47,960 nt of DNA from assembly GCA_964355335.1 (NCBI GenBank), contig CAYHDB010000004.1, positions 1-47,960 on the forward strand, in the 5' to 3' direction. The stretch is from an uncultured Candidatus Saccharibacteria bacterium (lineage in GTDB: Bacteria; Patescibacteriota; Minisyncoccia; Phycocordibacterales; SIBU01). The translations under genes were made by a program, and so were the position numbers. How positions within the stretch are numbered: the stretch's first letter is position 1; every line of letters begins with the position of its first letter. Below the pieces are notes generated by a model, which worked only from the letters and a program-made list of their open reading frames with translations, was not told where the DNA came from and ran no database searches. Of this stretch, positions 5,638-22,130 are shown piece after piece.

Positions 5638-5638
5638 A

Positions 5639-6163: not shown

Positions 6164-6179
6164 AATTCGTGATTCTGCC

Positions 6180-6731: not shown

Positions 6732-6749
6732 ATTGGTGTTGTGTCAGCA

Positions 6750-7964
6750 CTAAACATTATTAAGCACACTATACATCGGAGTAATCATCGAGACGGCGAA
6801 AAATCCTACGACGACTCCGATAACGACCATAAGAAACGGTTCAATAATCGTAGACATATCCTTCGTCTTCTCGGTAACCTCATCCTCATAAAACGCGCCT
6901 ACACCCGCAAGCATCTCGGAAAGTTTACCGGTCTCCTCACCGACAGCAGCCATTTCCGAAAGAAATCCCGGATAAAGGTCTTCTCTTTCCATAAAAACTT
7001 TTGAAATAGGAATACCTTTTTCTATATTTTTTCCCGCCTGAGCCAGAACCTCCTTAAAATATGAATTTTGCAAAACCTCCTCGGTAATAGCCAGCGCTCT
7101 AGTGACAGGTACGCCGGATGACAAAAGTGATGACAATGTTCTAGCTGTGCGCGCAGTGTTCGTCTCCCTATCCAGGGTCCCGATAATTGGAATGCGCAAA
7201 ATAATATAATCGGCTATCCTTCTCCCTGTTTTTGTTCTCAAAAATAAATAAATGGAAGAAAAAACGACTACCGCGATGAGGATACCTAGCAGTGAGTTGT
7301 ATCTAAGGAAATCACTGACACCTATAACAATCTTGGTTGAAGTCGGCAATTCACTGTTTAGCTCTTTAAAGGTCTCGGAAAGTGTTGGAACAACATAAAT
7401 CATCATGAAAACTCCAATGAGCAACATGACGGACAAAATAATTCCCGGGTACAACATCGCCCCGCGAACCTTTCTTTCCAACGCATACGCACTGTCCATC
7501 TGACTCGCCACAATCTTTAAAGATCCGGACAGACTTCCACTCTCCTCTCCTGCCCTGGTCATCGATACGAAAAGTTTGGAAAAAACTCCTGGAAAATTCT
7601 CCAGCGACTCACTTAGGGTTTTTCCCTTTTCAACATTCTCTCTCAAGGCAGTCATAAGATTTTTCAACTTTGGCTTCTTACTTTGGCGTTCCATCACATT
7701 TAGAGCTCGGGAAAGTGATAGACCGGCCTCAAGCATTGCACCCAGATTTCTGGCAATTATTATCTTGTCGTGAGGACCGACCCTACCAAAAAAAGACAGC
7801 CGATTGATGATATTCCACGCTTTCGCGGGCTTAACTTCGGAAACCGTCACCACTATCTCCTCTTGTTTGCGCAAATCTCTGTACAGTGAATACTTATCAA
7901 GCGCTTCACGCTCTCCTTCATATATTTCACCGTCGGCTTTTTGGGCTTTGTATTTAAAACGCAT
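6750..7964 (-). CDS. pilC: Type IV pilus platform protein PilC / T2SS F family (probable start at ATG 7964)
   Basis: Two T2SSF repeats (AGEESGSL, VGEETGKL), AMLYP and IEPFLMV. Confidence 0.93.
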   Translation of the reverse strand: MRFKYKAQKADGEIYEGEREALDKYSLYRDLRKQEEIVVTVSEVKPAKAWNIINRLSFFGRVGPHDKIIIARNLGAMLEAGLSLSRALNVMERQSKKPKLKNLMTALRENVEKGKTLSESLENFPGVFSKLFVSMTRAGEESGSLSGSLKIVASQMDSAYALERKVRGAMLYPGIILSVMLLIGVFMMIYVVPTLSETFKELNSELPTSTKIVIGVSDFLRYNSLLGILIAVVVFSSIYLFLRTKTGRRIADYIILRIPIIGTLDRETNTARTARTLSSLLSSGVPVTRALAITEEVLQNSYFKEVLAQAGKNIEKGIPISKVFMEREDLYPGFLSEMAAVGEETGKLSEMLAGVGAFYEDEVTEKTKDMSTIIEPFLMVVIGVVVGFFAVSMITPMYSVLNNV

Positions 7965-8058
7965 AAGAAAGTTCAAAACGCAAAACTAAAAAATAAAAAC
8001 TTCAGATGAAAAAATGTTAAGATTCATAAACTTTGCACTTTTAGTTTTTAACTTTTAC

Positions 8059-9810
8059 TTATTCGGATACAACTCTAAACACCTCCTCAATCGTCGTGAT
8101 GCCTTCTGCACATTTGAAAATACCGTCCTCAAGCATGGTCAGCATCCCCTCCTTTCTGGCCTGAATTTCAATCTCGTTTGATGAGGCCCCTTTAAGAATA
8201 AGGTCTCTAATGGTCGGGGTCACCTTTAGGGTTTCGTGAATACCGATACGACTTGAGTAACCGTCTTTACATTCGGGACATGACGCAGGTTTATACATTG
8301 GCACCTTCTCCCACGTGACATCACCGGCAACAATCTTTTCAGCTTTTAATGCCTTGAGTACGCGGTCGAGGTCAACGGACTTCCCAAGTGTCACCAAAGC
8401 CGCTTTATTGAGAAAATATTTCTCCTTATTTGTGAACAACTTTCTGACGAGTCTCTGGGCGATGATGACATTGACCGTGGACACAATTAGAAATGGCTCC
8501 ACCTTCATATCCAATAGACGTGGGATTGCTCCCGCAGCTGAGTTGGTATGCAAAGTCGAAAGCACGAGATGTCCCGTGAGAGAAGCGTTTACCGCGAGTC
8601 CGGCAGTCTCATTGTCGCGAATTTCTCCCACCATGATGATATCGGGGTCCTGTCTGACCAAGGTACGGAGGCCTGCGCCAAAAGTAAAGCCTATCTCTGG
8701 TTTTACCTGAGTTTGGTTTACCCTTGGCATCTGATATTCGATAGGGTCCTCGACGGTTGAAATGTTGACCTCGGGTGTATTCAAAATATCAAGAATCGTG
8801 TAGAGAGTGGTAGTCTTTCCGCTACCTGTCGGACCCGTGGTCAATATCATGCCAGTCTTCTGTTTCATACCATAATGTATTTTCTCCAATGAATCCCCGT
8901 GAAAACCTATACCTTCGAGTGTAAACCCTGAGGAGCCCTCCTTCAGTAAACGCATGACAATCTTTTCACCAAAAAACGTCGGCATAACGGAAACACGAAA
9001 AGAAACTTTTTCGTTTGAAACTTCCACCTTGAAACGCCCATCTTGAGGAAGACGTTTTTCATCAAGTTTCAAACTGGCCAAAACTTTTATACGCGCAGTA
9101 ATGCTCCCCGAAGCATTTTTCGGCAGAGTCATGGTGTCGTGGAGAATACCGTCTATTCGGTATCGCACCAAAACCTCCGTCTCCATCGGCTCGATATGGA
9201 TATCTGAAGCATTCTGCAATATCGCGTGCTTGAGTAGAGTGTCGACAATACGGACAATCGGTAAATCTTCGGCCATCTTCTTCAAATCCTTCGGGTCCAA
9301 ATCCCCCACTGAAACATCGGGTACCGATTTCAAGGCCGCGGTTTCCTTCTGAATAATATCTCCGAACTCAGCCTTCAATGATTTTTGGTATTGCAAAAGC
9401 GCGCTCTTCAAAGACTCCTTGTCGGTAAGGCGTGGCGTGATTTTCAAATGTACCTTCTTTTTTATGAAATCAATGGCAGTGAGGTCATCCGTATCGAGCA
9501 TCGCCACTTCCAATGCAGTATCGTCTTTTTTAAAAGCAACAATATTGTGACTTCGAGCAATCGGTTCGGGAATAAGCGACAAAACATCAAAATCAAGCTT
9601 CTGTCCTTTAAGGTCGACAAAGGGAATGCCGAGCACATAAGCTTGCACCTTGCGCAAATCATCATCGGTAATCTTGCCCTTAGTGACAAGTACTGTGCCG
9701 ATACTTTGGTTCGTCTTTTCCGCTTCCTTAGCGGTTTCTTCAAGATCAGTGCGAGTGACCAATCCGGAATCCAAAATAAACTCCCGAAGTTGTTTTTCTT
9801 CTATGAACAC
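8059..9810 (-). CDS. pilB: Type IV pilus assembly ATPase PilB (GspE/PulE family)
   Basis: ASDIHIEP, RLPQDGRF, Walker A GPTGSGKTT, VEDPIEY, RQDPDIIMVGEIRD and GHLVLSTLHTN. Confidence 0.95.
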   Translation of the reverse strand: MFIEEKQLREFILDSGLVTRTDLEETAKEAEKTNQSIGTVLVTKGKITDDDLRKVQAYVLGIPFVDLKGQKLDFDVLSLIPEPIARSHNIVAFKKDDTALEVAMLDTDDLTAIDFIKKKVHLKITPRLTDKESLKSALLQYQKSLKAEFGDIIQKETAALKSVPDVSVGDLDPKDLKKMAEDLPIVRIVDTLLKHAILQNASDIHIEPMETEVLVRYRIDGILHDTMTLPKNASGSITARIKVLASLKLDEKRLPQDGRFKVEVSNEKVSFRVSVMPTFFGEKIVMRLLKEGSSGFTLEGIGFHGDSLEKIHYGMKQKTGMILTTGPTGSGKTTTLYTILDILNTPEVNISTVEDPIEYQMPRVNQTQVKPEIGFTFGAGLRTLVRQDPDIIMVGEIRDNETAGLAVNASLTGHLVLSTLHTNSAAGAIPRLLDMKVEPFLIVSTVNVIIAQRLVRKLFTNKEKYFLNKAALVTLGKSVDLDRVLKALKAEKIVAGDVTWEKVPMYKPASCPECKDGYSSRIGIHETLKVTPTIRDLILKGASSNEIEIQARKEGMLTMLEDGIFKCAEGITTIEEVFRVVSE

Positions 9811-9882
9811 CTTCTAATTATAACAGAAAAAGGAAACGTGTTCTCCGTAACATTGTTCACAGAAAGCGCAGAAATTTTACGT

Positions 9883-10536
9883 CTAGTAAATAGGAGTAAA
9901 ATCTTTAAAATTTGAATTTGTCATAAAACCTCGAACGTAGGTATTTCTTTTTGTTTGTTCCAAGCAATTCAAGTCAATCGACTGCGGTATTTTACCTTTA
10001 TTTTTGATAAAAATTTCGATGATTCTCATAATAAAATCGTGCGCAATTATAAGCTTGGTATCATCAATAGAGAATATATCATCAAAAAATCTCTTAATCC
10101 GGTCAAAAGTGCTGACGTAAAATTCAGCGTCTTCCCCAGACACCATGCCCCGAAATACTGCACTGTTCACAGCCGCAATACCATCGCCTCCTTTAAACAA
10201 TTTTGCCAAATCAAAACTTATTTCGTCCAATTCTGAAAACTTTTTGACCGGGGGCCGAACACCTGTCACCTTCTCAATCTCATTCTGAAAAATAAGGGCA
10301 GTTTCCCCTGTGCGCGGAATCGTGCTCGTGTATATTACCTTAGACAAAAGTATTTCTGGAAAATTGGAAATTAATTTTTTGACCAGTATCGTCGAATATT
10401 CCATATCTATAGGAGGGTTAAGCTTCCTGTCTCCCAAACCCGAAAGCACTGAAATCGGCATCTCACTGTGATCCTTGAAAGGAAGAGATAGCTTTCCGTG
10501 CCTAACTATAAAATATCTTGATAAATTTTTATTCAT
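9883..10536 (-). CDS. Histidine phosphatase (phosphoglycerate mutase-like) family protein
   Basis: FIVRHG, TS..PRTGETA, ELDEI and LIIAH motifs. Confidence 0.8.
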   Translation of the reverse strand: MNKNLSRYFIVRHGKLSLPFKDHSEMPISVLSGLGDRKLNPPIDMEYSTILVKKLISNFPEILLSKVIYTSTIPRTGETALIFQNEIEKVTGVRPPVKKFSELDEISFDLAKLFKGGDGIAAVNSAVFRGMVSGEDAEFYVSTFDRIKRFFDDIFSIDDTKLIIAHDFIMRIIEIFIKNKGKIPQSIDLNCLEQTKRNTYVRGFMTNSNFKDFTPIY

Positions 10537-10570
10537 TGTTTTTTGTAGTATAACAAATTAATAATAAATA

Positions 10571-10599
10571 GAGGGAGCGCAATATTTTGCAACTCCCCC
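10571..10599 (-). terminator. Probable intrinsic terminator after the PEP-utiliser gene
   Basis: Imperfect GGGAG...CTCCC hairpin next to an A/T-rich tract, just after the stop codon. Confidence 0.45.
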
Positions 10600-10608
10600 G
10601 TACGATAA

Positions 10609-13089
10609 TCACTTGGAAATGATTGTTATCTTGCCCGAAGCCCCGTCAACTCTCACCCGCATTCCCGTTTTAAGCACGTGGGTAGCTCTCGGGACATTAA
10701 GTACCGCCGCAAAGCCGATTTCCCGAGCATAGATGGCTCCATGCGCAAGTAATCCTCCCACTTCGGTAACAAGCCCTCCTTTCGCCCCTACTATTGCGAG
10801 TGCCGGTGCCCAAGCTGGATCGGTCTGTTCTGTAACAAGAATTGACCCAGGCTTAAGCATTTTAATGGTCACTGTATCTGCTAAACTCCTGACAATAACC
10901 ACTTCTCCCGTAACCGAGGCGTTCGTAACACCAATACCCTTCAGAACACTCGCGGTGTTAAAAAAAGCATCAGCTGTTCCAATGTGTCGCAACTCTGCCG
11001 CAAACGAAACTGGCGGTACGTAAACGTCCCTATGGAGTCTCCGCATTTCCTCTCTTCCGTCTGCTCTCCGTCGAAGAATACCTGCCTTGGTGGTAAGATG
11101 CCCGACCTCTTCCGGTTTAAGGTAAAAGATTCGACCCTCATCCCAACCAAGCTTGCGTTCGATGACTACAGCAAGTTCCCGAAGGAGTGCATAGCCTCGG
11201 AGATATTCGAATTTTACCTCTTCTCTAAGACCCAAGTATGTCTGAGCCATGGATAGCAGGTCGCTCAAACCCTGCAAGTGCTTCCGCCCCGGTCTAAACA
11301 ACCTAGCAAGAAGCATTACACGCTCGTCTTCTTTCGAAGAAAGGTCGTGTTCGGGTGATTCCGTGATTCCCTCGGAAAGTTGGCGAAGTGTTTCCGGTTG
11401 ATTGGCAAAACGAGGCGTTGAAATTTCCAATTCATGTTGGGCAAGATGCCCGTAGCGTTCACAAACCTCTTCGAGAGTAACAGTTCCCTGTTTCAAATTA
11501 AAGAGGTCTGCCGTGAACTGCAGATTTGGATTTGTCTTCCGCGCCGATCCGCCAGTTAATACATTGAGGAATTGATCCGCCTTTTTTCCGTGATGTTTCT
11601 TTATCATCTTTCGCGCTTGCGCGTAAGAGAAGAAGCCGAGCCGAGCTGCCTTCACGAAGATCCTACAAGCACGGGTTCGAAGCAACTCACAAATCGCCAT
11701 GTACTGCGAAGTGAGTTCCGCAAGTGATCCATTGCCTAGTGAATGTTTAGCTTTTGAGATCGCAGCGGTCCATTCCGGAAGAAACTTGCTTCGATACTCA
11801 TCTTCCGTTGTGGTCGCTGCATTCAAAAGCTTTTGTTCAAAGACTTGGTACGCTTTGTGAAAGCATTTGCCCTTTCGAACTCCGAAGAGATCTGAAAGGA
11901 AGCGCCGTGTTGGGTTCTGGTTGTACAGAACCACCTCTGGATAATTGGCAAGACTCCTGTCTGCTCGAACTCTTGCAAGGTAGTGATTCACCAACTTGCA
12001 ATAATCGAGAAGCGGAATACCTGCTATCCTGTAAGTAAAAGCATCGTGAATTATGCTTGAACGTGGCTGCCCTCCTATGAGGGCGAAAAAACCACAATCC
12101 AACTCATCCCCGATCTCATACCCGAGCTCATTTCGAGCCATACGTATTGCTCCATTCCCATGGGCAAAACAATACGTGAATAATCCAAACCCCATTGTCG
12201 TAGGAAAGGACGTCAGAAGTTCGACAATGTTTTGGTCCGTGAACACGTCCTCAGCGAGTCTGCAACCAAGCGTGACAAGACGTTTTTTCTCCCTGCCAAC
12301 CTCTGCGACGGTTTCTTTGATAGAACGTTGAACTTTCGGAGAGAGCTTCTTGTCATTCAATTGGCCCAGTGTGTCAGAACGGCTTTTCCGACCCTGATTA
12401 ATAAACAACAAGCCGGTAGTGCACTCGAACGCCCATTCAATATCATTCACCCCGAGGTTCTTGTTAAGCAGCTTGGCAGTTTGGACAAGCTCCTTGATCT
12501 GCTTGGGACTCAAGTCAACACCACCTTTTCCCTCAACCCTTTTCACCAGTCCGGTTTTCTTATACACGTACCAGCGCCTCGGCTCTTCCTGCCCGGAAAC
12601 CAGTTTGTCTGCAGTACCGGTCGTGGCCTCAATGACCATGCATTCCTTGTCACCGTTTGCGGGATTATCAGTAAAGATAACCCCTGCGACAGACGCATCA
12701 ACCATCTCCTGCACAAAAAGGGCTAACCGTGGTTCTCGTGCGTGATGGACTTTCCGGTATGACTGCGCTACCGTGCTTTTTACAGCTTGGGCGCATTCAA
12801 TTACTGCGGCACCGAGGTCTTTTCGAGCGACAAACAGCTTGCTTACAAACTGCCCCGCCCACGACAACTCGCCGTCTTCGTCAACTGCGGAACTGCGAAC
12901 AGCAAAACCTACGCGGTTGTCGTCAAGAGAGCTAGTAGAATTCAACAACCCTGCTGGCAGCCTGCCAGTTCGATTGATAAAATCTACCCTTTCTACTTCT
13001 AACGAAACAAAGGGTTTAACGTTTGCCAACTTTCTGATGCGAAACAACATTACTGCTTTTCGCCCGTTATGTTTAACTGAGAGTTTCAT
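10609..13089 (-). CDS. PEP-utiliser/PPDK-type kinase: N-terminal ATP-grasp, central substrate domain, C-terminal phosphohistidine swivel (rifampin phosphotransferase / L-glutamine kinase architecture)
   Basis: AVRSSAVDEDG..SWAGQF, VQEMV...AGVIFT, DIEWA and C-terminal TDPAW...GGLLAHGAIYAREIG..AV. Confidence 0.85.
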   Translation of the reverse strand: MKLSVKHNGRKAVMLFRIRKLANVKPFVSLEVERVDFINRTGRLPAGLLNSTSSLDDNRVGFAVRSSAVDEDGELSWAGQFVSKLFVARKDLGAAVIECAQAVKSTVAQSYRKVHHAREPRLALFVQEMVDASVAGVIFTDNPANGDKECMVIEATTGTADKLVSGQEEPRRWYVYKKTGLVKRVEGKGGVDLSPKQIKELVQTAKLLNKNLGVNDIEWAFECTTGLLFINQGRKSRSDTLGQLNDKKLSPKVQRSIKETVAEVGREKKRLVTLGCRLAEDVFTDQNIVELLTSFPTTMGFGLFTYCFAHGNGAIRMARNELGYEIGDELDCGFFALIGGQPRSSIIHDAFTYRIAGIPLLDYCKLVNHYLARVRADRSLANYPEVVLYNQNPTRRFLSDLFGVRKGKCFHKAYQVFEQKLLNAATTTEDEYRSKFLPEWTAAISKAKHSLGNGSLAELTSQYMAICELLRTRACRIFVKAARLGFFSYAQARKMIKKHHGKKADQFLNVLTGGSARKTNPNLQFTADLFNLKQGTVTLEEVCERYGHLAQHELEISTPRFANQPETLRQLSEGITESPEHDLSSKEDERVMLLARLFRPGRKHLQGLSDLLSMAQTYLGLREEVKFEYLRGYALLRELAVVIERKLGWDEGRIFYLKPEEVGHLTTKAGILRRRADGREEMRRLHRDVYVPPVSFAAELRHIGTADAFFNTASVLKGIGVTNASVTGEVVIVRSLADTVTIKMLKPGSILVTEQTDPAWAPALAIVGAKGGLVTEVGGLLAHGAIYAREIGFAAVLNVPRATHVLKTGMRVRVDGASGKITIISK

Positions 13090-13166
13090 TTCAGTAATCC
13101 TTTCGTTTATTGTTCAAAACAACATTTCTGTACATACGCGTTATCGCGAAACATACACACCGATTA

Positions 13167-13796
13167 TCAACTAAGATCGACGCAGTTACCCAGGTAATCA
13201 ATAAGGTCACAAGAGTACCTAGTCCGTCGTACTTGTGCGTCAACCCTACCAAATAAACAAGCAATCACCCAAGAAGCACTCGTTCCGGTACATTTGCAAA
13301 TATACTTTATGAGTGATCTGTGTGCGTCAACATCAGAAGCTTCCCGTGCAACCGGGCAATCAGTGGGTTTCTCCCTATATCTTTGCTCCAGGTAACCAAG
13401 CGTGCAGAGCATTTTTGATTTGCATTCAGGAAAAAGCCTTTGTAGGGTTTCAGAAACGCTTTCATCCATTGCTAAGATAATCGAGGATTCTTCGATATCT
13501 GTACTACTCACTTCCTGTGCCAACCGATCTGTGGGCATAACAACTCCACACTCACTAAGAACAGGTTTAATTGTTAACCACAAAGCCGGAAAGTCTTTCA
13601 CCAGACTTTTCCCGGCACACCCAGTTAATCCCCGAGAGATACAGGTTGCCGACCTTGGCACCCTGTACAACTGCAAAGGTTCGTATGAAGCAGTGCGTTT
13701 TATTCTTAGTGTTTCATTGAGGCATGTTTCTGCAATAACTGAACGGTAAACGTTGTCTGCACAAACGATGAGAATTTGATTTTTCATAACAATCAT
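13167..13796 (-). CDS. Low-molecular-weight protein Tyr/Arg phosphatase or ArsC-like protein
   Basis: N-terminal ILIVCADNVYRSVIAE (CX5R P-loop), SRGL and IILAMD. Confidence 0.75.
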   Translation of the reverse strand: MIVMKNQILIVCADNVYRSVIAETCLNETLRIKRTASYEPLQLYRVPRSATCISRGLTGCAGKSLVKDFPALWLTIKPVLSECGVVMPTDRLAQEVSSTDIEESSIILAMDESVSETLQRLFPECKSKMLCTLGYLEQRYREKPTDCPVAREASDVDAHRSLIKYICKCTGTSASWVIACLFGRVDAQVRRTRYSCDLIDYLGNCVDLS

Positions 13797-13858
13797 TTTG
13801 TCAAAGAACTACTTTTCTGGCTGTCTATGACGGCGAATTGGTCGCCGGCATATTCCAA

Positions 13859-13900
13859 ACAAAAAAGACACCTTGGCGAAATCCAAGGTGTCTTTTTTGT
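13859..13900 (-). terminator. Attenuator terminator hairpin
   Basis: Perfect 18-bp inverted repeat ACAAAAAAGACACCTTGG-cgaaat-CCAAGGTGTCTTTTTTGT including a U-run. Confidence 0.9.
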
Positions 13901-13909
13901 CATAATTAA

Positions 13910-13996
13910 TTAACGACAAAACAGATGGATCTCGCCATGATTAGACATAGACCATCGCCAAACTGCATTTTTAATTTTTACTAATAATTGATTCAT
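13910..13996 (-). CDS. Trp-containing leader peptide (TrpL-like), 28 aa MNQLLVKIKNAVWRWSMSNHGEIHLFCR
   Basis: Manual translation; starts 4 nt after the trpR stop; TGG-CGA-TGG codons at 13960-13952; overlaps alternative hairpins upstream of the terminator. Confidence 0.8.
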   Translation of the reverse strand: MNQLLVKIKNAVWRWSMSNHGEIHLFCR

Positions 13997-14000
13997 ATTT

Positions 14001-14279
14001 TTATTTGACTTTATAATTCTTCAAAACCTTCCAAAATCCACCTTTATCGTTCAATAATTCTCTGGAACCGCGAGTAATCTTGGCAATACTGACTCCTAAA
14101 TTACCGGCTATTTCTCTTTGAGGTACCCTCTTCGAGAGCAACTTGATGATTTGCCAGCGAATACTGATATCCTCAAACTCCGTCGGAGTAAGCAGATCCT
14201 CAAGGAACTCATCCATCAGCTTTGGATTCCTGATAGATACCAACAGCTTCATTAATTCCTCTCGATATTTCTTATCCAT
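14001..14279 (-). CDS. trpR: Trp repressor (TrpR/YerC-YecD family) HTH regulator
   Basis: FLEDLLTPTE...RWQIIKLL...PQREIA.NLGVSIAKITRGSREL matches the TrpR signature. Confidence 0.88.
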   Translation of the reverse strand: MDKKYREELMKLLVSIRNPKLMDEFLEDLLTPTEFEDISIRWQIIKLLSKRVPQREIAGNLGVSIAKITRGSRELLNDKGGFWKVLKNYKVK

Positions 14280-14284
14280 ATGAT

Positions 14285-14314
14285 TTGTACTGTTGTAATG
14301 CTACACAAGTACAA
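14285..14314. promoter_or_regulatory. Tandem TrpR-type operator overlapping the trpR promoter
   Basis: TTGTACT-N16-AGTACAA with an internal GTAAT-N8-AGTAC; compare the E. coli GTACT-N8-AGTAC core with 8-bp tandem spacing. Confidence 0.7.
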
Positions 14315-14369
14315 TATCATATACGTAAAATAGCACAAGTTTGGGGTGTGGATAACTCAGATTTCACAT

Positions 14370-14400
14370 AAATAAAAGACGCTCTGTGATAGAGCGTCTT
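14370..14400 (-). terminator. Intrinsic terminator after the zinc-ribbon ORFs
   Basis: AAGACGCTCT-gtgat-AGAGCGTCTT with an adjacent minus-strand U-tract. Confidence 0.8.
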
Positions 14401-14417
14401 GGCTACAAAGAACTTTC

Positions 14418-14588
14418 TTAATACGTCACAGTGCGAACAATCTCATGTCTCATCCCGAAGTCTTCCGCCTTGTAAGGTGGCATAAGCAACCAATTACACT
14501 TAGGACAAAGGGCGGGTGATGTAACTTTCGGAAACACAATCCTGCTACACTGCCAGCACCAGTAGCATCTCCGTCTTGGATTTTTCAT
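14418..14588 (-). CDS. Small zinc-ribbon-like protein (56 aa, MKNPRRRCYWCWQC...LCPKC)
   Basis: Two CxxC pairs; GAGGGA SD upstream of ATG 14588; followed by a terminator. Confidence 0.6.
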   Translation of the reverse strand: MKNPRRRCYWCWQCSRIVFPKVTSPALCPKCNWLLMPPYKAEDFGMRHEIVRTVTY

Positions 14589-14607
14589 CACATATCCCTC
14601 TTTGTGT

Positions 14608-14811
14608 TCACGCACTCCAGGCCGAACGGCGAGGTTTGGTGCGTGTCGGTGCAGTGCCGAAACCAGCGGGACGGCTTGGCTCAGACAGAACCGCACTGAT
14701 AGGTAACTCTTCAAGAACAGTATTGCACTTTGCGCAGTGGATGTTCCGGCCGATTTGTTTTGTTGTGACATCGGCCAAACAGCGAACGCAGTATTTAGTT
14801 GGTGTATTCAT
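14608..14811 (-). CDS. Small zinc-ribbon-like protein (67 aa, YCVRC...HCAKC)
   Basis: Two CxxC pairs; first ORF after the T-box terminator. Confidence 0.6.
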   Translation of the reverse strand: MNTPTKYCVRCLADVTTKQIGRNIHCAKCNTVLEELPISAVLSEPSRPAGFGTAPTRTKPRRSAWSA

Positions 14812-14854
14812 TTTAAGGAACTATTTTTTGAGAACGATTTTTGTTTTTGAAACG

Positions 14855-15175
14855 AAAAATCCCATCCCCAATGTCCCGACATAATGTCGAGACGCTAAGG
14901 ACGAGATTTGTTTCCCGTGGTGCCACCTTGCTTGTCCGCCTAAGTTTTGTTCTCACAAAAATTTTGGCGTGCTTCTCATCAGCTCATGCTCCTTGCGGAA
15001 GATACTGATTATCTCTGTTACGGGAGAACCCGGGCCTGCACACGAGCTATACCTTTCGGTCGCTCAAGCACAGACCATCCTGTCATCTGTTTTCACAAAC
15101 GACTTATCTAGCCCCAACCCCAGCCACCTTTCGGCAACCAGGAACTAGACATGGATGTTGTAACTGTCAACCTGA
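14855..15175 (-). ncRNA. T-box riboswitch (transcriptional) with an atypical 5' domain
   Basis: T-box AAGG-UGGCACC-ACG (14929-14916) pairs with CGUCCUU (14903-14897); a competing long terminator with U-run spans 14909-14855; stem III-like hairpin upstream; F-box-like CCCGUAAC (15024-15017). Confidence 0.8.
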
Positions 15176-15179
15176 TATT

Positions 15180-15207
15180 AGGTTACCAGACCCCCAAAAT
15201 TTGTCAA
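15180..15207 (-). promoter_or_regulatory. Sigma70-type promoter for the T-box leader
   Basis: TTGACA-N16-TAACCT with an extended TG. Confidence 0.6.
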
Positions 15208-15212
15208 CAATA

Positions 15213-15836
15213 TCAGATTTTAAACCTCCTTGAAAAATCCCCAACGTGATATTTTCTAAAATCAAAGACTATATTTACCTCTTTATTAAGCGTCTTTATA
15301 TAAGCAAAAAATTGACTGGCATCCCAGACACTTAAGTCCAGGCCTTTCACTACCTCATCCAACTTCTTCTGAGCAACAGCAACCTCATCTGAATGACTCA
15401 TTATTTCCGCCTCAAAATAATAGCTGTGGTTCGGAACCTCTACCAAGGCGAGCTCAACACCCTTATATTCATAGACCCATGAGTTTCTTACACAAAGCAT
15501 CCCCTTTTCCAAACCGATACTACCGAAAATCCTTACTAAGTCATCGAAGGAATTATTCGGAGTACATACAGATATTTCCTCCCGACTTTCCTTGCTACCC
15601 CAGGAACCAAGCTTAACTATTATTTCAGGAACCCCGTTCGTAACCCGAAGGCGAATATCTTTATTTCTTGCATTGAGCTTCTGACCTTTTATAAAGGTAG
15701 AATAATCAATCAGAACTCTTTCCTTTTTCAATTTGAATTTGCCATTCGTCGTCAGAAACTTTTTTACACGCAAAAACTCATTTCGGGCTAAAGTCCCTCG
15801 CACTTCCACTTCTATTGTTTTCGCTTTCTTAGCCAT
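15213..15836 (-). CDS. CYTH (class IV adenylate cyclase / triphosphate tunnel) domain protein
   Basis: IEVEVR (ExExK-like), IRLR, SREEI and YYFEAE motifs. Confidence 0.8.
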   Translation of the reverse strand: MAKKAKTIEVEVRGTLARNEFLRVKKFLTTNGKFKLKKERVLIDYSTFIKGQKLNARNKDIRLRVTNGVPEIIVKLGSWGSKESREEISVCTPNNSFDDLVRIFGSIGLEKGMLCVRNSWVYEYKGVELALVEVPNHSYYFEAEIMSHSDEVAVAQKKLDEVVKGLDLSVWDASQFFAYIKTLNKEVNIVFDFRKYHVGDFSRRFKI

Positions 15837-16099
15837 TCACTTCACAAAAATAATTTAATAACCGTATTGTGCTCTCCTCCCCTGTTTTGTCAAACAAAAC
15901 CAAGAATTATCTGTGAAATAGTTAAAAATAATACGAACCAAAAAATCTGGACTTAATCTAATGGTGTGCTACCCTCTGGGTAGCTAATGGATCTTCGAAA
16001 AATGGCCTAATAAAGGCGTGAAATACCATTGGTGTGGCTAAGCGTAGCCACAGATTTTGCTCACAAAACGACAGTTCAGACAAGAAAGATGAGGTAATA

Positions 16100-17251
16100 A
16101 TGAATGCACAACTTGATGTAAAAAGCTTGACAAGTGCGATGGTTTCGTTTGATACAGTTTCCTCGAAAAGCAACATGCCCCTAGTGAAATTCCTACATCC
16201 CCTGCTCACCGAGATTGGGTTTGAGGTAGAAATCCAGGGTCATGAGCTTCAGCAGGAAATACTGACAAAGGCGAACATCATTGCCCGAGCAGGTCCACGA
16301 GATGTGGAACCTCTGATGTTCTCCGCACACACCGACACAGTACCTGAGGGCAGCCATTGGGACTATAAGCCGTTTGAATTAACGGAGGACAAAAGACGCG
16401 GATTGCTGTTTGGACGCGGTGCAGTGGATATGAAAGGTTCAATCGCATCAATGATATGCGCATTGGCTCCACTTTTGCCAAAGGCGAACAGTTTCAAACG
16501 CGAACTGATTCTCGGATTAACCTTCGATGAAGAGGTGGGTTTGCTTGGCGCAAAACATCTCGTTCAATCCGGATTGATCAAGCCGAAATACGCATTGGTC
16601 GGTGAACCGACATTAATGAAACCGATGCGTATGCACAAGGGTCACATCTACTTGCGCGCCGTATGCCATGGAGCAAGCGGTCATGCGAGCGACCCGAAAA
16701 GCGGTGTAAATGCAATTGAGATTGCTGGACGGGTCATCGAAATACTGCGAGCATTTGCCGGGGAACTGGCAGTGCAAGGCAACGATGAGTATGACCCTCC
16801 TTACGCGACTCTCAATCTGGGTGTAATCAAGGGTGGCACGATAGCCAACGTAATCGCGGAAGAATGCATGATAGAGTTCGATATCCGCCCCATCGAGGGG
16901 CAGACATCAGACTTGATGATTCGCGACCTCGTGGCTCGTATGCAAAGCATCGGTGAACACTGCGGTCAACCACTTGTTTCTCTGAAGCTGACACGTTGCC
17001 CTACAGAACCGGTCACCACGGATCCAAATTCGTTGATTGTGACTGTCGCCGAGCAGGTAACCGGTATGAAGGCGCGAGGAGTGCCTTATGGTACGGATGC
17101 GTCCGTACTCCAACTAATGGGTACCGATTGTCTCATCCTTGGGCCTGGCGATATCGCACAGGCGCACAAGCCAAATGAGTATGTAAAAACCGAGCAACTC
17201 GAGCTTGCTGTAAGCAAATTCAGGCAAATCGCTCAAAAAATTTGCCTATGA
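16100..17251 (+). CDS. argE: Acetylornithine deacetylase (M20 family); probable start at ATG 16100
   Basis: SAHTDTVP, GRGAVDMKG, FDEEVGLLGA, VGEPT, HKG, YGTDA and GPGDIAQAHKPNEY; GAGGT SD; operon with argA. Confidence 0.85.
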   Translation: MNAQLDVKSLTSAMVSFDTVSSKSNMPLVKFLHPLLTEIGFEVEIQGHELQQEILTKANIIARAGPRDVEPLMFSAHTDTVPEGSHWDYKPFELTEDKRRGLLFGRGAVDMKGSIASMICALAPLLPKANSFKRELILGLTFDEEVGLLGAKHLVQSGLIKPKYALVGEPTLMKPMRMHKGHIYLRAVCHGASGHASDPKSGVNAIEIAGRVIEILRAFAGELAVQGNDEYDPPYATLNLGVIKGGTIANVIAEECMIEFDIRPIEGQTSDLMIRDLVARMQSIGEHCGQPLVSLKLTRCPTEPVTTDPNSLIVTVAEQVTGMKARGVPYGTDASVLQLMGTDCLILGPGDIAQAHKPNEYVKTEQLELAVSKFRQIAQKICL

Positions 17252-17270
17252 AATCCGGAAAGGAGTTCAC

Positions 17271-18500
17271 ATGAAAGACAGAAAATTGGCAACTAACAGA
17301 CTTCGTGAGATGCTCTATTACGTTGCGCGTTTCAGAAATTCGACCTTCGTCATCGCAATCGATGGCAGGGTACTGGAGGGAAATGACATGCTCTCTCTTG
17401 CAGAAGACATTTCCCTACTTCACTCAATCGGCATCCGTATTGCATTGGTGACAGGACTGTCGGATCAAAGTGACTTCAAAGAAAGACGAAGGACCCGATA
17501 CACACGGCTACGATCAACCACTGAGCAACTGTGCAAGTCCATCAATACGGTCCACCGAGGCCTCTCATCTCCTTTCATATCCAGAAGCGAGGAATCCCAA
17601 AATTTCGCGCAAAGGATCGACGAGGATGATATCGGCACAGGATTGCTTCCCAGCAGAGTCAGTGAGGCTCTCTCAGGCGGACTAATACCTGTGGTTGTCG
17701 CAAAGCCGATAAACGAGAAGACCGAGGATTCGTGGTTTGGTTCACTGCTGAGAGCAGCTACAAGTCTCTGTGGTGCAATCCTTACCGACAAATTGGTTTA
17801 CCTATCGTACTTTGACGGCATATTCACGGAAGGCAGAACTCTGCTTCGAGAGGCCCAGCTGGACCAAGTACAGCAACTGGTCGCGGATGAAACCATTAGC
17901 GGGCAATTCGCAGAGTTTGTGAAAACCGCCGAGACCGTCATTAACGCCGGAGTAATCCGCGTGCACTTCATCAACGGCAAAGTCGAAGGCAGTCTTCTTT
18001 GCGAACTGTTCACAAAAGACGGCGTCGGAACGATGATTCACCGAAATCAATATCAGGAAATTCGCCCCGCGCGAACGCCGGATATTAGTGGCATCCTGAA
18101 TGTGCTCGGTACGCAAGGAAGTCACGGCGACGTCAGACGACACACTGAGGAAATGATCAGTGCTCAACTCCCCAGCTACCGTGTCGTGGTCAAAGACAAT
18201 GGAGTTATAGCCTGTGGATGCCTACGTTGTTTCCCTGGAGAGAAAAAGGCACTTGTCAGTTCGCTTGGTGTTGACCAGTCCTATCTCAGTCAAGGAATCG
18301 GCGAACTTCTGCTTAAAAGCTTCATCACTGAGGCCAAGAGCAAAGGAGTCACTCTACTGACACTAGTAAGTCCTCAGACAGGTCAGTGGTGGCTTGGTCG
18401 AGAGTTTGACCCCGGGAAAGTCTCCGACCTTCCGAGCGACCTTCAGGCCAGCGTCAATACGCCCTCCACCACAATTTTGGTGAGTAGGCTCGAAGATTAA
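17271..18500 (+). CDS. argA: Amino-acid N-acetyltransferase ArgA (AAK + GNAT domains)
   Basis: Y..RFRNSTFVIAIDG, DISLLHSIGIR, GVIRVHFING..EGSLLCELFTKDGVGTMI, and C-terminal GNAT QGIGELLL. Confidence 0.85.
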   Translation: MKDRKLATNRLREMLYYVARFRNSTFVIAIDGRVLEGNDMLSLAEDISLLHSIGIRIALVTGLSDQSDFKERRRTRYTRLRSTTEQLCKSINTVHRGLSSPFISRSEESQNFAQRIDEDDIGTGLLPSRVSEALSGGLIPVVVAKPINEKTEDSWFGSLLRAATSLCGAILTDKLVYLSYFDGIFTEGRTLLREAQLDQVQQLVADETISGQFAEFVKTAETVINAGVIRVHFINGKVEGSLLCELFTKDGVGTMIHRNQYQEIRPARTPDISGILNVLGTQGSHGDVRRHTEEMISAQLPSYRVVVKDNGVIACGCLRCFPGEKKALVSSLGVDQSYLSQGIGELLLKSFITEAKSKGVTLLTLVSPQTGQWWLGREFDPGKVSDLPSDLQASVNTPSTTILVSRLED

Positions 18501-18516
18501 TCGTTCATTCAACCCG

Positions 18517-18556
18517 CCCGAAGTTACGCAAGTGTAACTTCGGGATTTTTATTTTT
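18517..18556 (+). terminator. Intrinsic terminator of argE-argA
   Basis: CCCGAAGTTACGC/GTGTAACTTCGGG hairpin followed by a U-tract. Confidence 0.85.
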
Positions 18557-18640
18557 CAAGATTGATAGTTAGGTATTAAAAAACGGCACCAAAAATAGCA
18601 CCGTTTACTTCACAAATCATTATGTTTTTCCACAAAACAT

Positions 18641-19417
18641 CTAAATCATTCCTTTAAGTCGGGATGCTTTAATCAAATCAATCCTCTCCCCTTCCTTTAT
18701 CGAACTCCCAATGATTGCTCCGTTCGCGACAGAGAATTGTTCTCGAATGTTTCCTTCATTCACGCCAGCACCGACAAAAATCGGAAATTGCGGAAATGCT
18801 TTCCGTACCTCCCTAATTTTCTCTATAGGTGTCTCAACTCCCGTCGCCTGACCTGTAATGACAAGTCCGTCTGAACCACTGTTTATCACAAGCTCAGCCG
18901 ATACCGCAAGTGGCCTTGGGGTCAACATTGTCTTGTACTTGACCTGTATGTCGGTAAGCAAAAGAAGCTCCGGGTAGATAGCATTTTTGTGGGAAAAGAT
19001 TTCTTCGGGCACGGGATTTATTTCACCCCATTTTGAACTGACGTGGTCCACGAACACATCGAGTCTCGTGAATTTCGCCCCAACAGCCTTCGCGATGGCA
19101 AAAGAAGTTTTCCAATCATTGAGCATCATCTGCACACCGATTGGGATTTTTGCAACTCGGCAAACCTCATTTGCGACAACAGAAAAACTCGCGATTTGCG
19201 CTTCGTTCGCAAACTCGGTATGTGGCTTGTCGTTGTCATTCTCAATCAATGCACCGTCAAACCCGGCTTTCTCCAAAGCCGAAAGATCCGCCAAAGCCCC
19301 CTCAATCATCTTCCCCATTCCAGAAAATCCTTCAATGGAAAGCAACGGTGGAAGGTGAATCATTCCGATAAGGATTTGATTTTCTTTGCCGAATACTTCA
19401 TTAATGCTTGGTTTCAT
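18641..19417 (-). CDS. BtpA/SgcQ family TIM-barrel protein
   Basis: IGMIHLPPL, IENDNDKP, DIQVKY, DGLVITGQATG, VGAGV and GAIIGSSIK. Confidence 0.9.
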   Translation of the reverse strand: MKPSINEVFGKENQILIGMIHLPPLLSIEGFSGMGKMIEGALADLSALEKAGFDGALIENDNDKPHTEFANEAQIASFSVVANEVCRVAKIPIGVQMMLNDWKTSFAIAKAVGAKFTRLDVFVDHVSSKWGEINPVPEEIFSHKNAIYPELLLLTDIQVKYKTMLTPRPLAVSAELVINSGSDGLVITGQATGVETPIEKIREVRKAFPQFPIFVGAGVNEGNIREQFSVANGAIIGSSIKEGERIDLIKASRLKGMI

Positions 19418-19591
19418 TCTTTTCTCCTCATATGGGTACTGTATTGTTCTTAAGATTCTAATTAGAAGTCGATTTATTACACGAAAGACTTCCTTATACC
19501 AAACATACAGTACAAAATATGTTGGCCACTGTCAAAACTTCAGTATCTTAAAATTACTGTGCGGATATTTAAAATAATATGATAGTAAAAT

Positions 19592-20659
19592 CTACAAGCC
19601 AACCCCTAATCCAGGCTTCGTAGGCACCTCAACTGTATACCCGTTCCACAACAATCTTGAGGCTTTTTTAGGCAAAAATCTACTTGGCAAAGTCAGATCG
19701 TAACTTACAAAGTCGCCCAGGCAGGATGCGTGTAAGTTATATGCTGTACCAACTTCTGACTGAATCATGTCACCAAGCATATACTTGAGTCCATTTTCTT
19801 GGCAATAAGCAATCATTCGCTTAGCCTCAAATAATCCCCCACATTTGCTTAACTTAATGTTAACCATATCGATTGCATGTTTTTCATTTAAAAGTTTCAG
19901 ATGCCAAAGGGTATGACAACTTTCATCCGCCATGATTGGAATATTCGTCTTAAGCCGTAGCGAAGCAAGTCCATCATAGTCCTCGGCGTGCAAAGGTTGC
20001 TCCAACCATTCAATCCTGACTGGATTTAAAGCCTTCAAAAAAACGAGCGCAGACATAGGTGAATTCCATGCTTGATTGGCATCAAGCACAATAGAAATAT
20101 CAGGAAACGACTTGTTAATCGCTTTTAATATACTTACCTCAACCAGTGTATCTCCACCGACTTTAAACTTAAATATTTTAACACCCTGCTTCTGCGCTTT
20201 TTTGATAACCTCCTCAGGACCATTGTGCATTTCCTCAAAAGAAAAAGTTTTCTGCAGGAGAACAGACACCTTATTCTTACCTCCAAGTAATTCAAATATA
20301 GGTTTCCCTTCGGCTTGCCCTAAAATATCAAGCATTGCCGATTCAATCGCAGATTTAATACCTGTATTTCCGGCAAGATATGAATTGATGTTCTCCATCA
20401 CGGTATTCACATCATCCAGATTAGAAATACTCGCCCCCGAAACAATGGGCTCAACAAGTTTTATTACAGCCAACGCACCTTCTTGAGTTTCGCCGGTGAC
20501 ATCCCATGCCAATGCCGCCTCTCCTAAACCGACCAAACCTGAATCAGATGTGATTCTCACAAGCACATATTTCAGAGTGTTCAATGTCAGTGTGTGATAT
20601 GAAAAAGGCTCCCTCAACTTGAGGTCAAACTTTTCAGCTTCTATCAACTTGATTGTCAT
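19592..20659 (-). CDS. Enolase superfamily, MLE subgroup (dipeptide epimerase / N-succinylamino acid racemase-like)
   Basis: GLGEA, KFKVG (KxK), DANQ, EQP, ADES, NIKLSKCGG and KPGLG. Confidence 0.88.
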   Translation of the reverse strand: MTIKLIEAEKFDLKLREPFSYHTLTLNTLKYVLVRITSDSGLVGLGEAALAWDVTGETQEGALAVIKLVEPIVSGASISNLDDVNTVMENINSYLAGNTGIKSAIESAMLDILGQAEGKPIFELLGGKNKVSVLLQKTFSFEEMHNGPEEVIKKAQKQGVKIFKFKVGGDTLVEVSILKAINKSFPDISIVLDANQAWNSPMSALVFLKALNPVRIEWLEQPLHAEDYDGLASLRLKTNIPIMADESCHTLWHLKLLNEKHAIDMVNIKLSKCGGLFEAKRMIAYCQENGLKYMLGDMIQSEVGTAYNLHASCLGDFVSYDLTLPSRFLPKKASRLLWNGYTVEVPTKPGLGVGL

Positions 20660-20683
20660 GTATGAAAAATAGCACGAGTATAT

Positions 20684-20717
20684 AAAAAAGAAAAGACGAT
20701 GACCTAGTCATCGTCTT
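20684..20717 (-). terminator. Intrinsic terminator after the ATP-grasp gene
   Basis: AAGACGATGAC-cta-GTCATCGTCTT perfect stem with a minus-strand U-tract. Confidence 0.85.
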
Positions 20718-20732
20718 GAATAACAATCGAAT

Positions 20733-21974
20733 TCAAACCTCAATTTCTCGCATTACCCTACGTTTCGCCTTTTCAAATCTTGCTTCTGCGGAAGCAGGTG
20801 ATACCCAGGAAATACCCGTGATATCGCAATAGCCGTGAGCAATCACACCTGGATTGGAGACGACCGCAAAACCTGAAAAGTGAGGGACCAGCAAATCACC
20901 GAGAAGGTTTTGAATTTCTAAAAAACTGTAAGCTTCGACACGGTCAGGAAGACGCAGGTGCTCATGCCTGAAAAAACCGCTGTCGGAGTTCGCGTGCGCC
21001 CGAGAAAGTCTGCGGACCATATCATGAACATAGAGGATTGCCCCTTTTCTTGGATTAAAGTCAATCCAGTAAGGGACACCGTCATCGTCCACAACAATAT
21101 CACAACAGAAGAAACCGATCGCACCTTCAGCAATCAAGGCGGGCCAAAATCTGCTCTCCGCCTCATTCATGATACATCGGCGAGTCTCTTTCGGTAAACT
21201 TTGGGCCGGCCAAACCGCTCCAGCATATCCGAAATTACGGGAAAGTTGCTCAAAAATACCAGTGAAGCACGCTTTTCCCTCTTCGGTTATCTGCCAATGA
21301 AGAGAAACCTCTGTCGAATGGGGTATGACTTCCTCAATCATAAACTCCGCACCAAAGGCCAATCCTTGTCCAGTCAAATTACGCAGCTGCTCCTCGTTGG
21401 CAATAAGCTTCATACCACCGCAAGCAATTCCACCAGTCCCATCCTCCGCCTTCAACAACAAGGTCTTGCCCACTTGAAGCATGGGAAGGCCGTGCCGAAG
21501 CAACTCTTCCCCGTTTCGGCACGCAAACCAAGAAGGTGTCCGCAAACCATTTCGGTCAAAAAACCTCTTGAAGTTCGGCTTGCGGGAAAGCGGAATAGAA
21601 ACATCGAAATTGCAGTACGGAGCTATTCCAAGAGCCTCTGACACCTGTCGTTCACTTTCCTCAATACAGAAGAACTCGAGACGGGATGGCTCTCCGTTTA
21701 CCCGCGACCGAATTTGCCCCTGAAGAAACTGGTTTCGAAGTACAAGTTGTGACAGGGTACATGTTGGGTCAAATGGACCAGCCACCAGAAACTCCGGGAG
21801 GTCAAATCCTAGGCCTTCCCAATAACGAAGAAAGTCCCGATTGATAGGGTCAGTAGTGACCACAACATCTCCCGTGCCCGCCTGACAGATACCACCACGC
21901 TGATCATACGATTGCTCCAAAGCGACACCTTTGAAATGACGGTTGCTCTGAGTGTCTAATATTACACGTCTCAT
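20733..21974 (-). CDS. ATP-grasp peptide/amide ligase with a pre-ATP-grasp domain (PGM1-like)
   Basis: GDVVVT..P...DFLRY N-domain, LLLKAEDGTGG, MIEEVI, GFFCCDIVV and WIDFNPR. Confidence 0.75.
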   Translation of the reverse strand: MRRVILDTQSNRHFKGVALEQSYDQRGGICQAGTGDVVVTTDPINRDFLRYWEGLGFDLPEFLVAGPFDPTCTLSQLVLRNQFLQGQIRSRVNGEPSRLEFFCIEESERQVSEALGIAPYCNFDVSIPLSRKPNFKRFFDRNGLRTPSWFACRNGEELLRHGLPMLQVGKTLLLKAEDGTGGIACGGMKLIANEEQLRNLTGQGLAFGAEFMIEEVIPHSTEVSLHWQITEEGKACFTGIFEQLSRNFGYAGAVWPAQSLPKETRRCIMNEAESRFWPALIAEGAIGFFCCDIVVDDDGVPYWIDFNPRKGAILYVHDMVRRLSRAHANSDSGFFRHEHLRLPDRVEAYSFLEIQNLLGDLLVPHFSGFAVVSNPGVIAHGYCDITGISWVSPASAEARFEKAKRRVMREIEV

Positions 21975-22015
21975 GATAGGTTCCTTTTGTTTTCAAATAG
22001 TTATTACCTCTAATT

Positions 22016-22053: not shown

Positions 22054-22097
22054 GGGTCACAAAAAATACAGCACTGCTTAGATATAAATTTGAATAT

Positions 22098-22124: not shown

Positions 22125-22130
22125 CGTGTG

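Follow-up and report, generated by a model that had tools for sequence, protein, structure and literature searches.

A minus-strand element directly behind a Trp-repressor gene, trpR, at positions 13859–13996 of the window is very probably a ribosome-mediated tryptophan attenuator built into a trpR-led operon. The window is the whole stretch of DNA that we analyzed, 47,960 nucleotides (nt) of contig CAYHDB010000004.1 (C4) in the assembly GCA_964355335.1 of an uncultured Candidatus Saccharibacteria bacterium, and this source genome (G000) comprises 0.97 Mb in 56 contigs and is 92.6% complete. Read from the sequence, the element has the features of the trpL type: a leader open reading frame (ORF) with clustered Trp codons, an intrinsic terminator, a predicted antiterminator that excludes it, and a spacing compatible with ribosome stalling. 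The cassette looks new in its packaging, with a leader probably coupled to trpR, an antiterminator that invades the terminator apex, and swappable downstream genes. The original prediction for this region had proposed a 28-codon leader with a Trp-Arg-Trp (WRW) motif, an alternative pairing and a terminator on the minus strand, and each of them lies where it had been placed. The parts are as follows.

Positions 14279–14001, minus strand: trpR, encoding a 92-aa protein of the Trp-repressor family; first gene of the unit.

Positions 13996–13910, minus strand: leader ORF (trpL-like), 28 codons and a stop, with Trp13-Arg14-Trp15.

Positions 13959–13944, minus strand: segment 1, the Trp codons and the following nt; pairs with segment 2 in ribosome-free minimum free energy (MFE) folds.

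Positions 13937–13923, minus strand: segment 2, the shared strand; anti-antiterminator with segment 1, antiterminator with the terminator apex.

Positions 13921–13895, minus strand: nested A/U-rich hairpin inside the antiterminator, seen in the masked fold (13921–13913 paired with 13903–13895).

Positions 13859–13900, minus strand: intrinsic terminator; core 13892–13867 with 10 base pairs (bp) and a 6-nt loop, U-run from 13866.

Positions 13885–13874, minus strand: segment 3, the terminator apex (last 3 nt of the 5′ arm, 6-nt loop, first 3 nt of the 3′ arm).

Positions 13866–13813, minus strand: second, post-terminator RNA hairpin, whose 5′ strand is the U-tract and which encloses an inner stem-loop.

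The product of trpR matches Pfam PF01371 (Trp_repressor) above the family cut-off (77.7 bits against 27; E = 7.2e-22), and its residues 21–75 align to chains of the solved E. coli Trp repressor (E = 2e-5) over the helix-turn-helix and the corepressor region, and it retains the LTP and ITRGS stretches. A sister species (G003; trpR locus L017, contig region L015) has a TrpR 95% identical to it, and the next relatives of this TrpR clade are the chlamydial TrpRs (41–56% identity). The leader starts 4 nt past the trpR stop codon, as expected from the proposed position directly behind the repressor gene, and its Trp codons lie at 13960–13958 (Trp13) and 13954–13952 (Trp15). It is probably translated, by coupling to trpR.

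We searched for the same arrangement elsewhere. With TrpR as the query, 32 genome loci were found and the stretch behind trpR was inspected in all 32; with an alignment of six close TrpRs as the query, 55 metagenome loci were found and 33 were inspected, the 22 left out (L082–L103) having TrpR matches of 36–60% identity that are mostly partial. A rule-based scan defined WW, WWW or WRW leaders followed by a terminator in the window and in 19 other loci, namely 5 from the 32 genome loci and 14 from the 33 inspected metagenome loci (L017–L021, L049–L051, L053–L056, L058–L061, L063, L067 and L076; L061 is a duplicate of L060, and L053 is nearly identical to L018). L057, with a single Trp codon, and L077, which runs off its contig, are left out of these counts, and L079, also outside them, has a WW ORF 14 nt past the trpR stop. 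The conservation of the Trp codons in homologous loci, which the original prediction had named as a test, is thus borne out. Leader starts range from −29 to +19 nt relative to the trpR stop, and four overlap it in the manner of ATGA. Sixteen of the 18 loci with a TrpR at least 55% identical and enough downstream sequence carry the leader; the exceptions are L052, which has none, and L057. In more distant TrpR loci, the chlamydial ones included, trpR is followed directly by trpE, trpD or other genes with no such leader, and no leader or attenuator was found behind either of the two other Trp-repressor-family genes of the source genome (contigs C1 and C8).

The peptide itself drifts. Met1 and the first Trp are the sole residues common to all 18 aligned leader peptides, of which 15 also have Trp at the next position, and identity to the window's peptide is 13–29% outside the window's own group. 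The window and the sister species differ at 5 of 138 nt in the leader and terminator stretch and, as counted from the alignment, at about 25 of 279 nt in trpR. The retention of Trp codons in 19 other loci despite this drift argues against a plain terminator of a one-gene trpR transcript, in which case the ORF and the pairing would be due to chance and the downstream genes would have a promoter of their own. The hairpin is strong and symmetric and could act in both directions, as such a terminator might. The promoter scan found no promoter-like site in the 62 nt that separate the terminator from the first downstream gene, antiterminator and apex covary, and the spacing is constant (see below), all of which speak for attenuation; we consider a plain terminator hardly probable at all.

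The unconstrained fold of 14000–13850 contains a 1:2 hairpin (the Trp-codon region paired with 13936–13920) and the terminator, with an energy of −44.8 kcal/mol (z = −5.95; none of 200 shuffles as stable). A hairpin scan gives the terminator core as a G+C-rich 10-bp stem of −21.0 kcal/mol followed by six U, a G and three U. Pairing between the A-tract and the U-tract lengthens the stem to 19 bp in the unconstrained fold, which agrees with the perfect terminator described at first. A simple terminator scan did not list the 13892–13867 hairpin, probably because the stem extends into the A/U tracts and no T-run remains after it. The terminator is present in 20 of 20 loci, and that of the sister species is identical save for one extra T in the U-tract.

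The competing structure is formed by 13937–13926 with 13885–13874. The predicted duplex, 12 bp with one G-U as in the original prediction, has an energy of −23.3 kcal/mol against a shuffled mean of −8.0 kcal/mol (z = −6.4; 0 of 1,000 shuffles reach it). The nested hairpin includes the leader stop codon and takes up some of the A-tract nt by which the terminator stem is otherwise lengthened. With all RNA masked as far as 12 nt beyond the last Trp codon, the antiterminator with this nested hairpin is the nascent fold (−28.5 kcal/mol), the outcome expected of the constrained folding that had been proposed as a check. All 20 loci have a segment past the Trp codons that is complementary to their own terminator apex (duplex z of −3.4 to −7.7); with 1,000 shuffles per locus, none reaches the observed energy in 13 loci and 1–5 do so in the other 7. 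Masking the footprint of a stalled ribosome yields the antiterminator as the nascent fold in 20 of 20 loci, and the antiterminated full-length state lies at most 1.4 kcal/mol from the MFE in 16 of 20 (exceptions L049, L051, L059 and L063).

To examine covariation, we aligned 19 sequences with MAFFT without fitting them to a structure. For an 11-pair antiterminator, 86.1% of alignment cells are paired, compared to 75.1% in shuffled alignments (0 of 500 reach the observed value) and 21–48% in slid controls, and both partners vary in 8 of the 11 pairs, a count attained by 2 of 500 shuffles. The spacing is regular: in the window, segment 2 begins 13 nt downstream of the last Trp codon, and the antiterminator strand starts 10–18 nt past that codon in 18 of 20 loci, at 13–15 nt in most; in the other two, L021 and L056, weaker pairs preceding the core stretch the duplex to 3 nt from the last Trp codon. 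The compensatory changes in the 2:3 pairing and this ribosome-matched spacing uphold the trpL-like logic that had been claimed in its 2:3 and 3:4 pairings, with one amendment: segment 3 does not comprise the entire 5′ arm but coincides with the terminator apex.

The same spacing bears on whether a ribosome is the sensor. The element could instead be a switch without a ribosome, such as a fold that binds tryptophan or tRNA or a target of an RNA-binding protein, or it could act mainly in trans through its RNA or peptide, as with Sinorhizobium rnTrpL/peTrpL. An Rfam scan of 12500–15500, with 17 matches at E up to 10, returned no Trp-leader family. No family reaches its gathering score on the element, where the best matches are terminator-like ones to small RNA (sRNA) families, PyrR at 24.3 bits and the trpB motif, RF04312, at 23.4 bits (E = 3.4); the latter overlaps the element and would fit a ligand-binding fold, yet it lies below the gathering score of 59, and we rejected membership in this family. 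Published excerpts on Sinorhizobium do describe trans roles for a trp attenuator RNA and peptide. The in-frame AUG and UGG are invariant and lie 13–15 nt from segment 2 in most loci, which fits a decoding ribosome and not a ligand pocket, and the absence of leader conservation beyond Met and Trp speaks against a trans-acting peptide; a trans role would in any case supplement attenuation, not replace it. We regard these alternatives together as very improbable.

Several observations weigh against ribosome-mediated attenuation or limit the evidence for it. No Shine-Dalgarno sequence precedes the leader, and likewise none precedes trpR or the first downstream gene. The pairing of segments 1 and 2, part of the original prediction, appears in the folds of 20 of 20 loci: in ribosome-free truncated transcripts segment 2 pairs with the footprint region in each of them (a count without a shuffle control), and in the window transcript cut after segment 2, 10 of 16 segment-2 nt pair with the stretch that a Trp-stalled ribosome would cover. 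By columns, covariation of this helix is not significant (65.4% paired, and 188 of 500 shuffles score at least as high). When segment 1 alone is shuffled, the z-scores range only from +1.1 to −1.8, since the Trp-codon stretches are rich in G and can pair with segment 2 even after shuffling. The ribosome-free full-length MFE contains the terminator in 14 of 20 loci and the antiterminator in 6 of 20, so termination in those six must rest on kinetics or on occlusion by the ribosome. In L049, a close relative, a loop change creates a mismatch in the middle of the antiterminator (−17.3 kcal/mol, compared to −23.3 kcal/mol in the window), and the terminated state is 9.8 kcal/mol more stable. Strand invasion by the 3′ arm of the terminator is conceivable, because the antiterminator leaves the middle of the 5′ arm unpaired. 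The cassette loci are kin, and counts across them are therefore non-independent.

Further limits concern the data at hand. Two metatranscriptome runs from the samples containing this DNA gave no contig on 13100–14400, a result that is uninformative either way. Logan contigs from a second sample cover the flanks at at least 99% and break between 13802 and 14026, so continuity of the contig through the leader lacks independent confirmation. A contig from a third study spans 13553–13819 with zero differences; the junction of the downstream genes with the post-terminator stretch is supported. As an aside, a mixture of strains in the second sample that share the cassette but differ in the genes behind it would be expected to give such a break at 13803–14025.

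Taken together, the attenuator would work as follows. Transcription would start from a promoter repressed by TrpR, and trpR would be translated; the ribosome ending trpR, or a new one at the adjacent start codon, would then read the 28-codon leader. With ample charged tRNA-Trp, the ribosome would pass Trp13-Arg14-Trp15 and segment 2 to the stop codon, segment 2 would be covered or re-paired with segment 1, the 13892–13867 hairpin would form, and the polymerase would halt in the U-tract, limiting expression to trpR and the leader. With charged tRNA-Trp scarce, a stall on Trp13 or Trp15 would hide segment 1 and free segment 2, which would capture the nascent terminator apex before the 3′ arm is made, so that the terminator could not close and read-through would pass the second hairpin into the downstream genes. 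The three downstream genes are thus predicted to be induced by tryptophan starvation.

The second hairpin forms in read-through RNA only. It has 20 irregular pairs (−23.4 kcal/mol); in six aligned loci, 95% of cells are paired compared to 41–53% in slid controls, and 7 of the 20 pairs change on both sides. RNAalifold gave no consensus on 11 more diverse post-terminator regions. By eye, a congener of the source genome (G005) has a similar arrangement after a T-box terminator.

Upstream of trpR, the sequence suggests a control region with the following parts.

Positions 14287–14356, minus strand: upstream control region of trpR, read from the sequence and a comparison of 20 upstream regions.

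Positions 14356–14347, minus strand: DnaA-box-like 10-mer upstream of trpR.

Positions about 14338–14311, minus strand: weak −35/extended −10, the putative trpR promoter.

Positions 14312–14287, minus strand: operator-like inverted GTAC…GTAC repeat, which shares nt with the −10 and stops 8 nt short of the trpR start.

The 10-mer, a TTGAC −35 and a GTAC-N-GTAC palindrome before the start codon form a layout that recurs in most of the 20 upstream regions. We infer that these elements are the promoter and the TrpR operator; the GTAC repeat at 14312–14287 is one that we take to resemble the E. coli trp operator. TrpR probably represses its own promoter, given the layout of the GTAC repeat and −35 and the conservation of LTP and ITRGS. 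A simple promoter scan did not list the promoter upstream of trpR among its sites. The 10-mer, which contains a perfect DnaA-box consensus, occurs in 15 copies in the source genome, including 14347–14356, compared to ∼1.8 expected; several copies lie 5–8 nt upstream of TTGAC −35 boxes, and six are within a longer repeated motif. Since it also stands upstream of the trpR promoter in most related loci, it may be a promoter-upstream element typical of the lineage.

The genes behind the cassette differ between the source genome and its sister species. In the window they are the following.

Positions 13796–13167, minus strand: gene 1, LMWPc-like phosphatase, a 209-aa ORF with a C-x5-R-S loop near the N-terminus.

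Positions 13089–10609, minus strand: gene 2, phosphoenolpyruvate (PEP)-synthase/rifamycin-phosphotransferase-like, 826 aa, with an ATP-binding and a mobile His domain.

Positions 10536–9883, minus strand: gene 3, 217 aa with an RHG motif, weakly histidine-phosphatase-like; last of the replacing block.

Gene 1 matches Pfam LMWPc (E = 4.7e-07; 30.6 bits against a cut-off of 23.2) and shares 30% identity over 168 aa with the LMWPc gene that follows the L050 cassette. Gene 2 matches PPDK_N (1.4e-25) and PEP-utilizers (2.6e-18) in Pfam, with all NCBIfam matches far below their cut-offs; its counterpart after the L057 cassette shares 40% identity with it over 524 aa. Gene 3 scores 17.7 bits against His_Phos_1, under the cut-off of 21.7.

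A block of the sister species is 90% identical to window positions 13798–14377 (586 aligned nt), covering trpR, the leader and the terminator up to the next start codon, and the homology ends a few bases from that codon. Behind it, the sister species has trpE (Chorismate_bind and Anth_synt_I_N) and trpG (GATase), and then pilus genes. From the pilus genes onward it is syntenic with window positions 614–9846, while 9847–13797 has no counterpart there; the shared flank means that trpE-trpG correspond in the source genome to three other genes at the same chromosomal position. As read from this comparison, trpE-trpG is the ancestral context of the cassette and has been replaced in the source genome. 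The original prediction, that the attenuator controls non-trp genes, thus holds for the source genome, but only because trpE-trpG has been replaced at this position. Genes of a matching pathway are usual for this class of attenuator and are not part of its mechanism; they are found behind the cassettes of the sister species, L049 and L021, and not in the window. On the other side of the cassette, a histidine-kinase gene just upstream of the sister's trpR matches window positions 33105–33940, from which it follows that ∼19 kb (14378–33100), including a T-box-like leader described below, are absent there in the sister species.

Across loci the downstream genes are varied. The cassette stands before trpE-G-D-C(F) in L021, and before a small ORF followed by trpE-trpG in L049. 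TrpB-type genes lie behind it in L053 and L056 (the TrpB-like enzyme of L056 scores 705 bits against a cut-off of 366), radical-SAM/SPASM and DUF169 genes in L019, L020 and L055, LMWPc and radical-SAM genes in L050, a PEP-synthase-like gene in L057 with its single-Trp leader, carboxylate-amine-ligase-like and aspartoacylase-like genes in L018 (the ORFs of L051 have the same sizes and start), and a gene resembling the N-terminal part of a serine kinase in L059 and L063. The last is in L059 (1166–1570) a 134-aa protein like the N-terminal part of the ADP-dependent serine kinase/SbnI; together with the TrpB-like (TrpB2-type) enzyme of L056 (3338–4714) it hints at Trp salvage from indole and phosphoserine, a phosphoserine link that we presume for these genes.

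With the queries used, the source genome gave no match to TrpE, TrpD, TrpC, TrpA, TrpB or chorismate synthase. The sister species (89% complete) has trpE-trpG only, with no match to indole-3-glycerol phosphate synthase (IGPS), Trp_syntA or chorismate synthase, and its trpE-trpG (L015, 10879–12943) thus resembles an orphan pair for anthranilate synthase. The same three families were likewise all without match in the L019 and L020 genomes (0.8 and 1.2 Mb) and are all present in the L021 genome. Besides the sister species, the four host genomes of the cassette with a known size measure 0.8–1.2 Mb. The taxonomic spread of the loci is uncertain: two relatives are labeled Gammaproteobacteria, among them the L019 genome with only 0.8 Mb.

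These findings allow that the attenuator is real and yet a relic, inherited from trpE-trpG through a recent gene swap, with a coupling that has no adaptive meaning. The cassette is 90% identical to the sister's with flanks that are wholly different, the homology stops a few bases from the downstream start codon, and the Trp-pathway genes were not found in the source genome with the queries used, as a relic would predict. Cassettes on unrelated contigs, however, have the same gene types behind them (LMWPc and radical SAM in L050, PEP-synthase-like in L057), and further evidence against a relic comes from the congener G005. Among 401 genomes of the order, orthologues of gene 2 occur in two, the source genome and G005 (80% identity). 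The G005 orthologue has the same place before pilB, without an LMWPc gene and without trpR, and its operon is preceded by a T-box-like leader with a T-box sequence and a terminator (27.3 bits against a gathering score of 93). A tRNA gene with the anticodon CCA (Trp; L105, 4459–4529, plus strand) lies immediately upstream of, and divergent from, this leader. The window holds a comparable leader between 15150 and 14846.

Positions about 15150–14846, minus strand: T-box-like leader, 28.8 bits on 14894–15095 (gathering score 93), with a T-box sequence and a terminator-like 3′ end.

Positions 14811–14608 (67 aa) and 14588–14418 (56 aa), minus strand: zinc-ribbon-like Cys-rich ORFs between the T-box-like leader and the trpR promoter.

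The window's T-box-like leader stands before these two ORFs, and its homologue in another genome, G001, before a zinc-ribbon ORF and pilB. All three T-box-like leaders (window, G005 and G001) fold into a basal hairpin whose 3′ side carries a conserved bulge of 5 nt with UGG in it. The antiterminator bulge UGGC of the source genome and G005 fits the G discriminator of the source genome's tRNA-Trp and misfits the A discriminators of tRNA-Leu(CAA), tRNA-Val and tRNA-Gly(CCC), the candidates if the bulge is read in its other frames. The thrS T-box-like leader of the source genome has ACC in a 7-nt hairpin loop and a UGGA bulge matching the U discriminator of tRNA-Thr. On this evidence we lean toward the view that the three UGG-bulge leaders are Trp-specific. 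In that case, two species would use two different devices to make the PEP-synthase-like operon respond to tRNA-Trp charging. A relic without adaptive meaning is therefore unlikely in our judgment, and the non-trp genes behind the cassette in the source genome are most likely part of a response to tryptophan starvation.

Some features of this neighborhood stand apart from that argument. The window's leader is an unusual short-Stem-I T-box for a Patescibacteria genome. Neither zinc-ribbon-like ORF matches a Pfam family above its cut-off; the 56-aa one contains three Trp, and comparable ORFs follow the attenuator before trpE in L049 (85 aa) and the T-box-like leader in G001 (98 aa). Two more T-box-like leaders of the source genome lie before an aminotransferase-like gene (C33:3633–3823, 46.1 bits) and a threonyl-tRNA-synthetase-like gene (C37:6504–6634, 22.1 bits; the thrS leader above).

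Organisms with such small genomes are thought to live off other cells and to be mostly unable to make amino acids. Given this dependence, a sensor of tRNA-Trp charging marks the genes that it gates as candidates for a response to, or the acquisition of, Trp. We tentatively propose, as an idea that we hold at somewhat less than even odds, that trpR, leader and terminator form a portable sensor of Trp starvation that has been recombined before varied genes in ultra-small, mostly Trp-auxotrophic bacteria, and that the recurrent non-trp genes may form an unrecognized function in tryptophan acquisition, salvage or starvation response. Two observations fit it: the PEP-synthase-like operon lies under two tRNA-Trp-sensing devices (the attenuator in the source genome and the T-box-like leader in G005), and the TrpB2-type and serine-kinase-like genes behind the same cassette hint at salvage of indole and phosphoserine. 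The shared segment from the terminator through the post-terminator stretch to the start codon may be the joint at which genes were swapped, which fits such a sensor. Uncharacterized enzymes thereby gain a testable physiological context, and the cassette, small and self-contained, is suited to a direct test in a laboratory host.

The mechanism itself is textbook; what looks new is its packaging and where it is found, with one compact, conserved cassette that combines a repressor gene, a leader probably coupled to it and an antiterminator that invades the terminator apex across about twenty loci. Our literature search, which excluded subscription journals and supplements, returned nothing relevant on leader peptides or attenuators in the Candidate Phyla Radiation or on TrpR in Patescibacteria. 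In Streptomyces, a Trp-codon attenuator reportedly precedes an auxiliary tryptophanyl-tRNA synthetase gene, outside Trp biosynthesis; the gene is said still to belong to Trp-tRNA metabolism, and there is reportedly no trpR coupling.

Like a T-box (Rfam RF00230), the cassette would give antitermination when tRNA charging drops, and in G005 a T-box-like leader holds the place taken by the trpR-leader cassette in the source genome, before the orthologous PEP-synthase-like operon. Unlike the cassette, a T-box reads the tRNA directly by RNA-RNA contacts, without a ribosome or a leader ORF, and the cassette has no T-box sequence. The Rfam trpB motif shares with it a terminator hairpin and an anti-terminator region. 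As excerpted from PMC11109978, this motif occurs in Firmicutes and Fusobacteria, mostly before an ABC transporter and sometimes before trpB, and has two hairpins, the second an intrinsic terminator; in the same excerpts its authors leave a classic attenuator possible.

The nearest published layout is the trpR-IGR-trpBA operon of Chlamydia trachomatis, where trpR is likewise first and a putative leader lies between it and the regulated genes. The excerpted account (PMC7755916) gives the annotated TrpL as 59 aa with non-consecutive Trp codons, an atypical leader that is predicted to be a poor attenuator and is unvalidated; the cassette, in contrast, is compact, with an antiterminator backed by covariation. 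In the chlamydial loci that we inspected, no WW leader intervenes between trpR and the trpE or trpD gene next to it. With E. coli trpL, as excerpted from the same account, the cassette shares a short leader ORF with neighboring Trp codons, the alternative 2:3 and 3:4 pairings, with a 1:2 pairing predicted by folding, an intrinsic terminator and, probably, the combination of TrpR repression and attenuation on one operon. It differs from E. coli trpL in that its leader lies behind the repressor gene and is probably translationally coupled to it, its segment 3 lies at the terminator apex instead of being the 5′ arm, its terminator is followed by another conserved hairpin, and its downstream genes in the source genome are non-trp genes.

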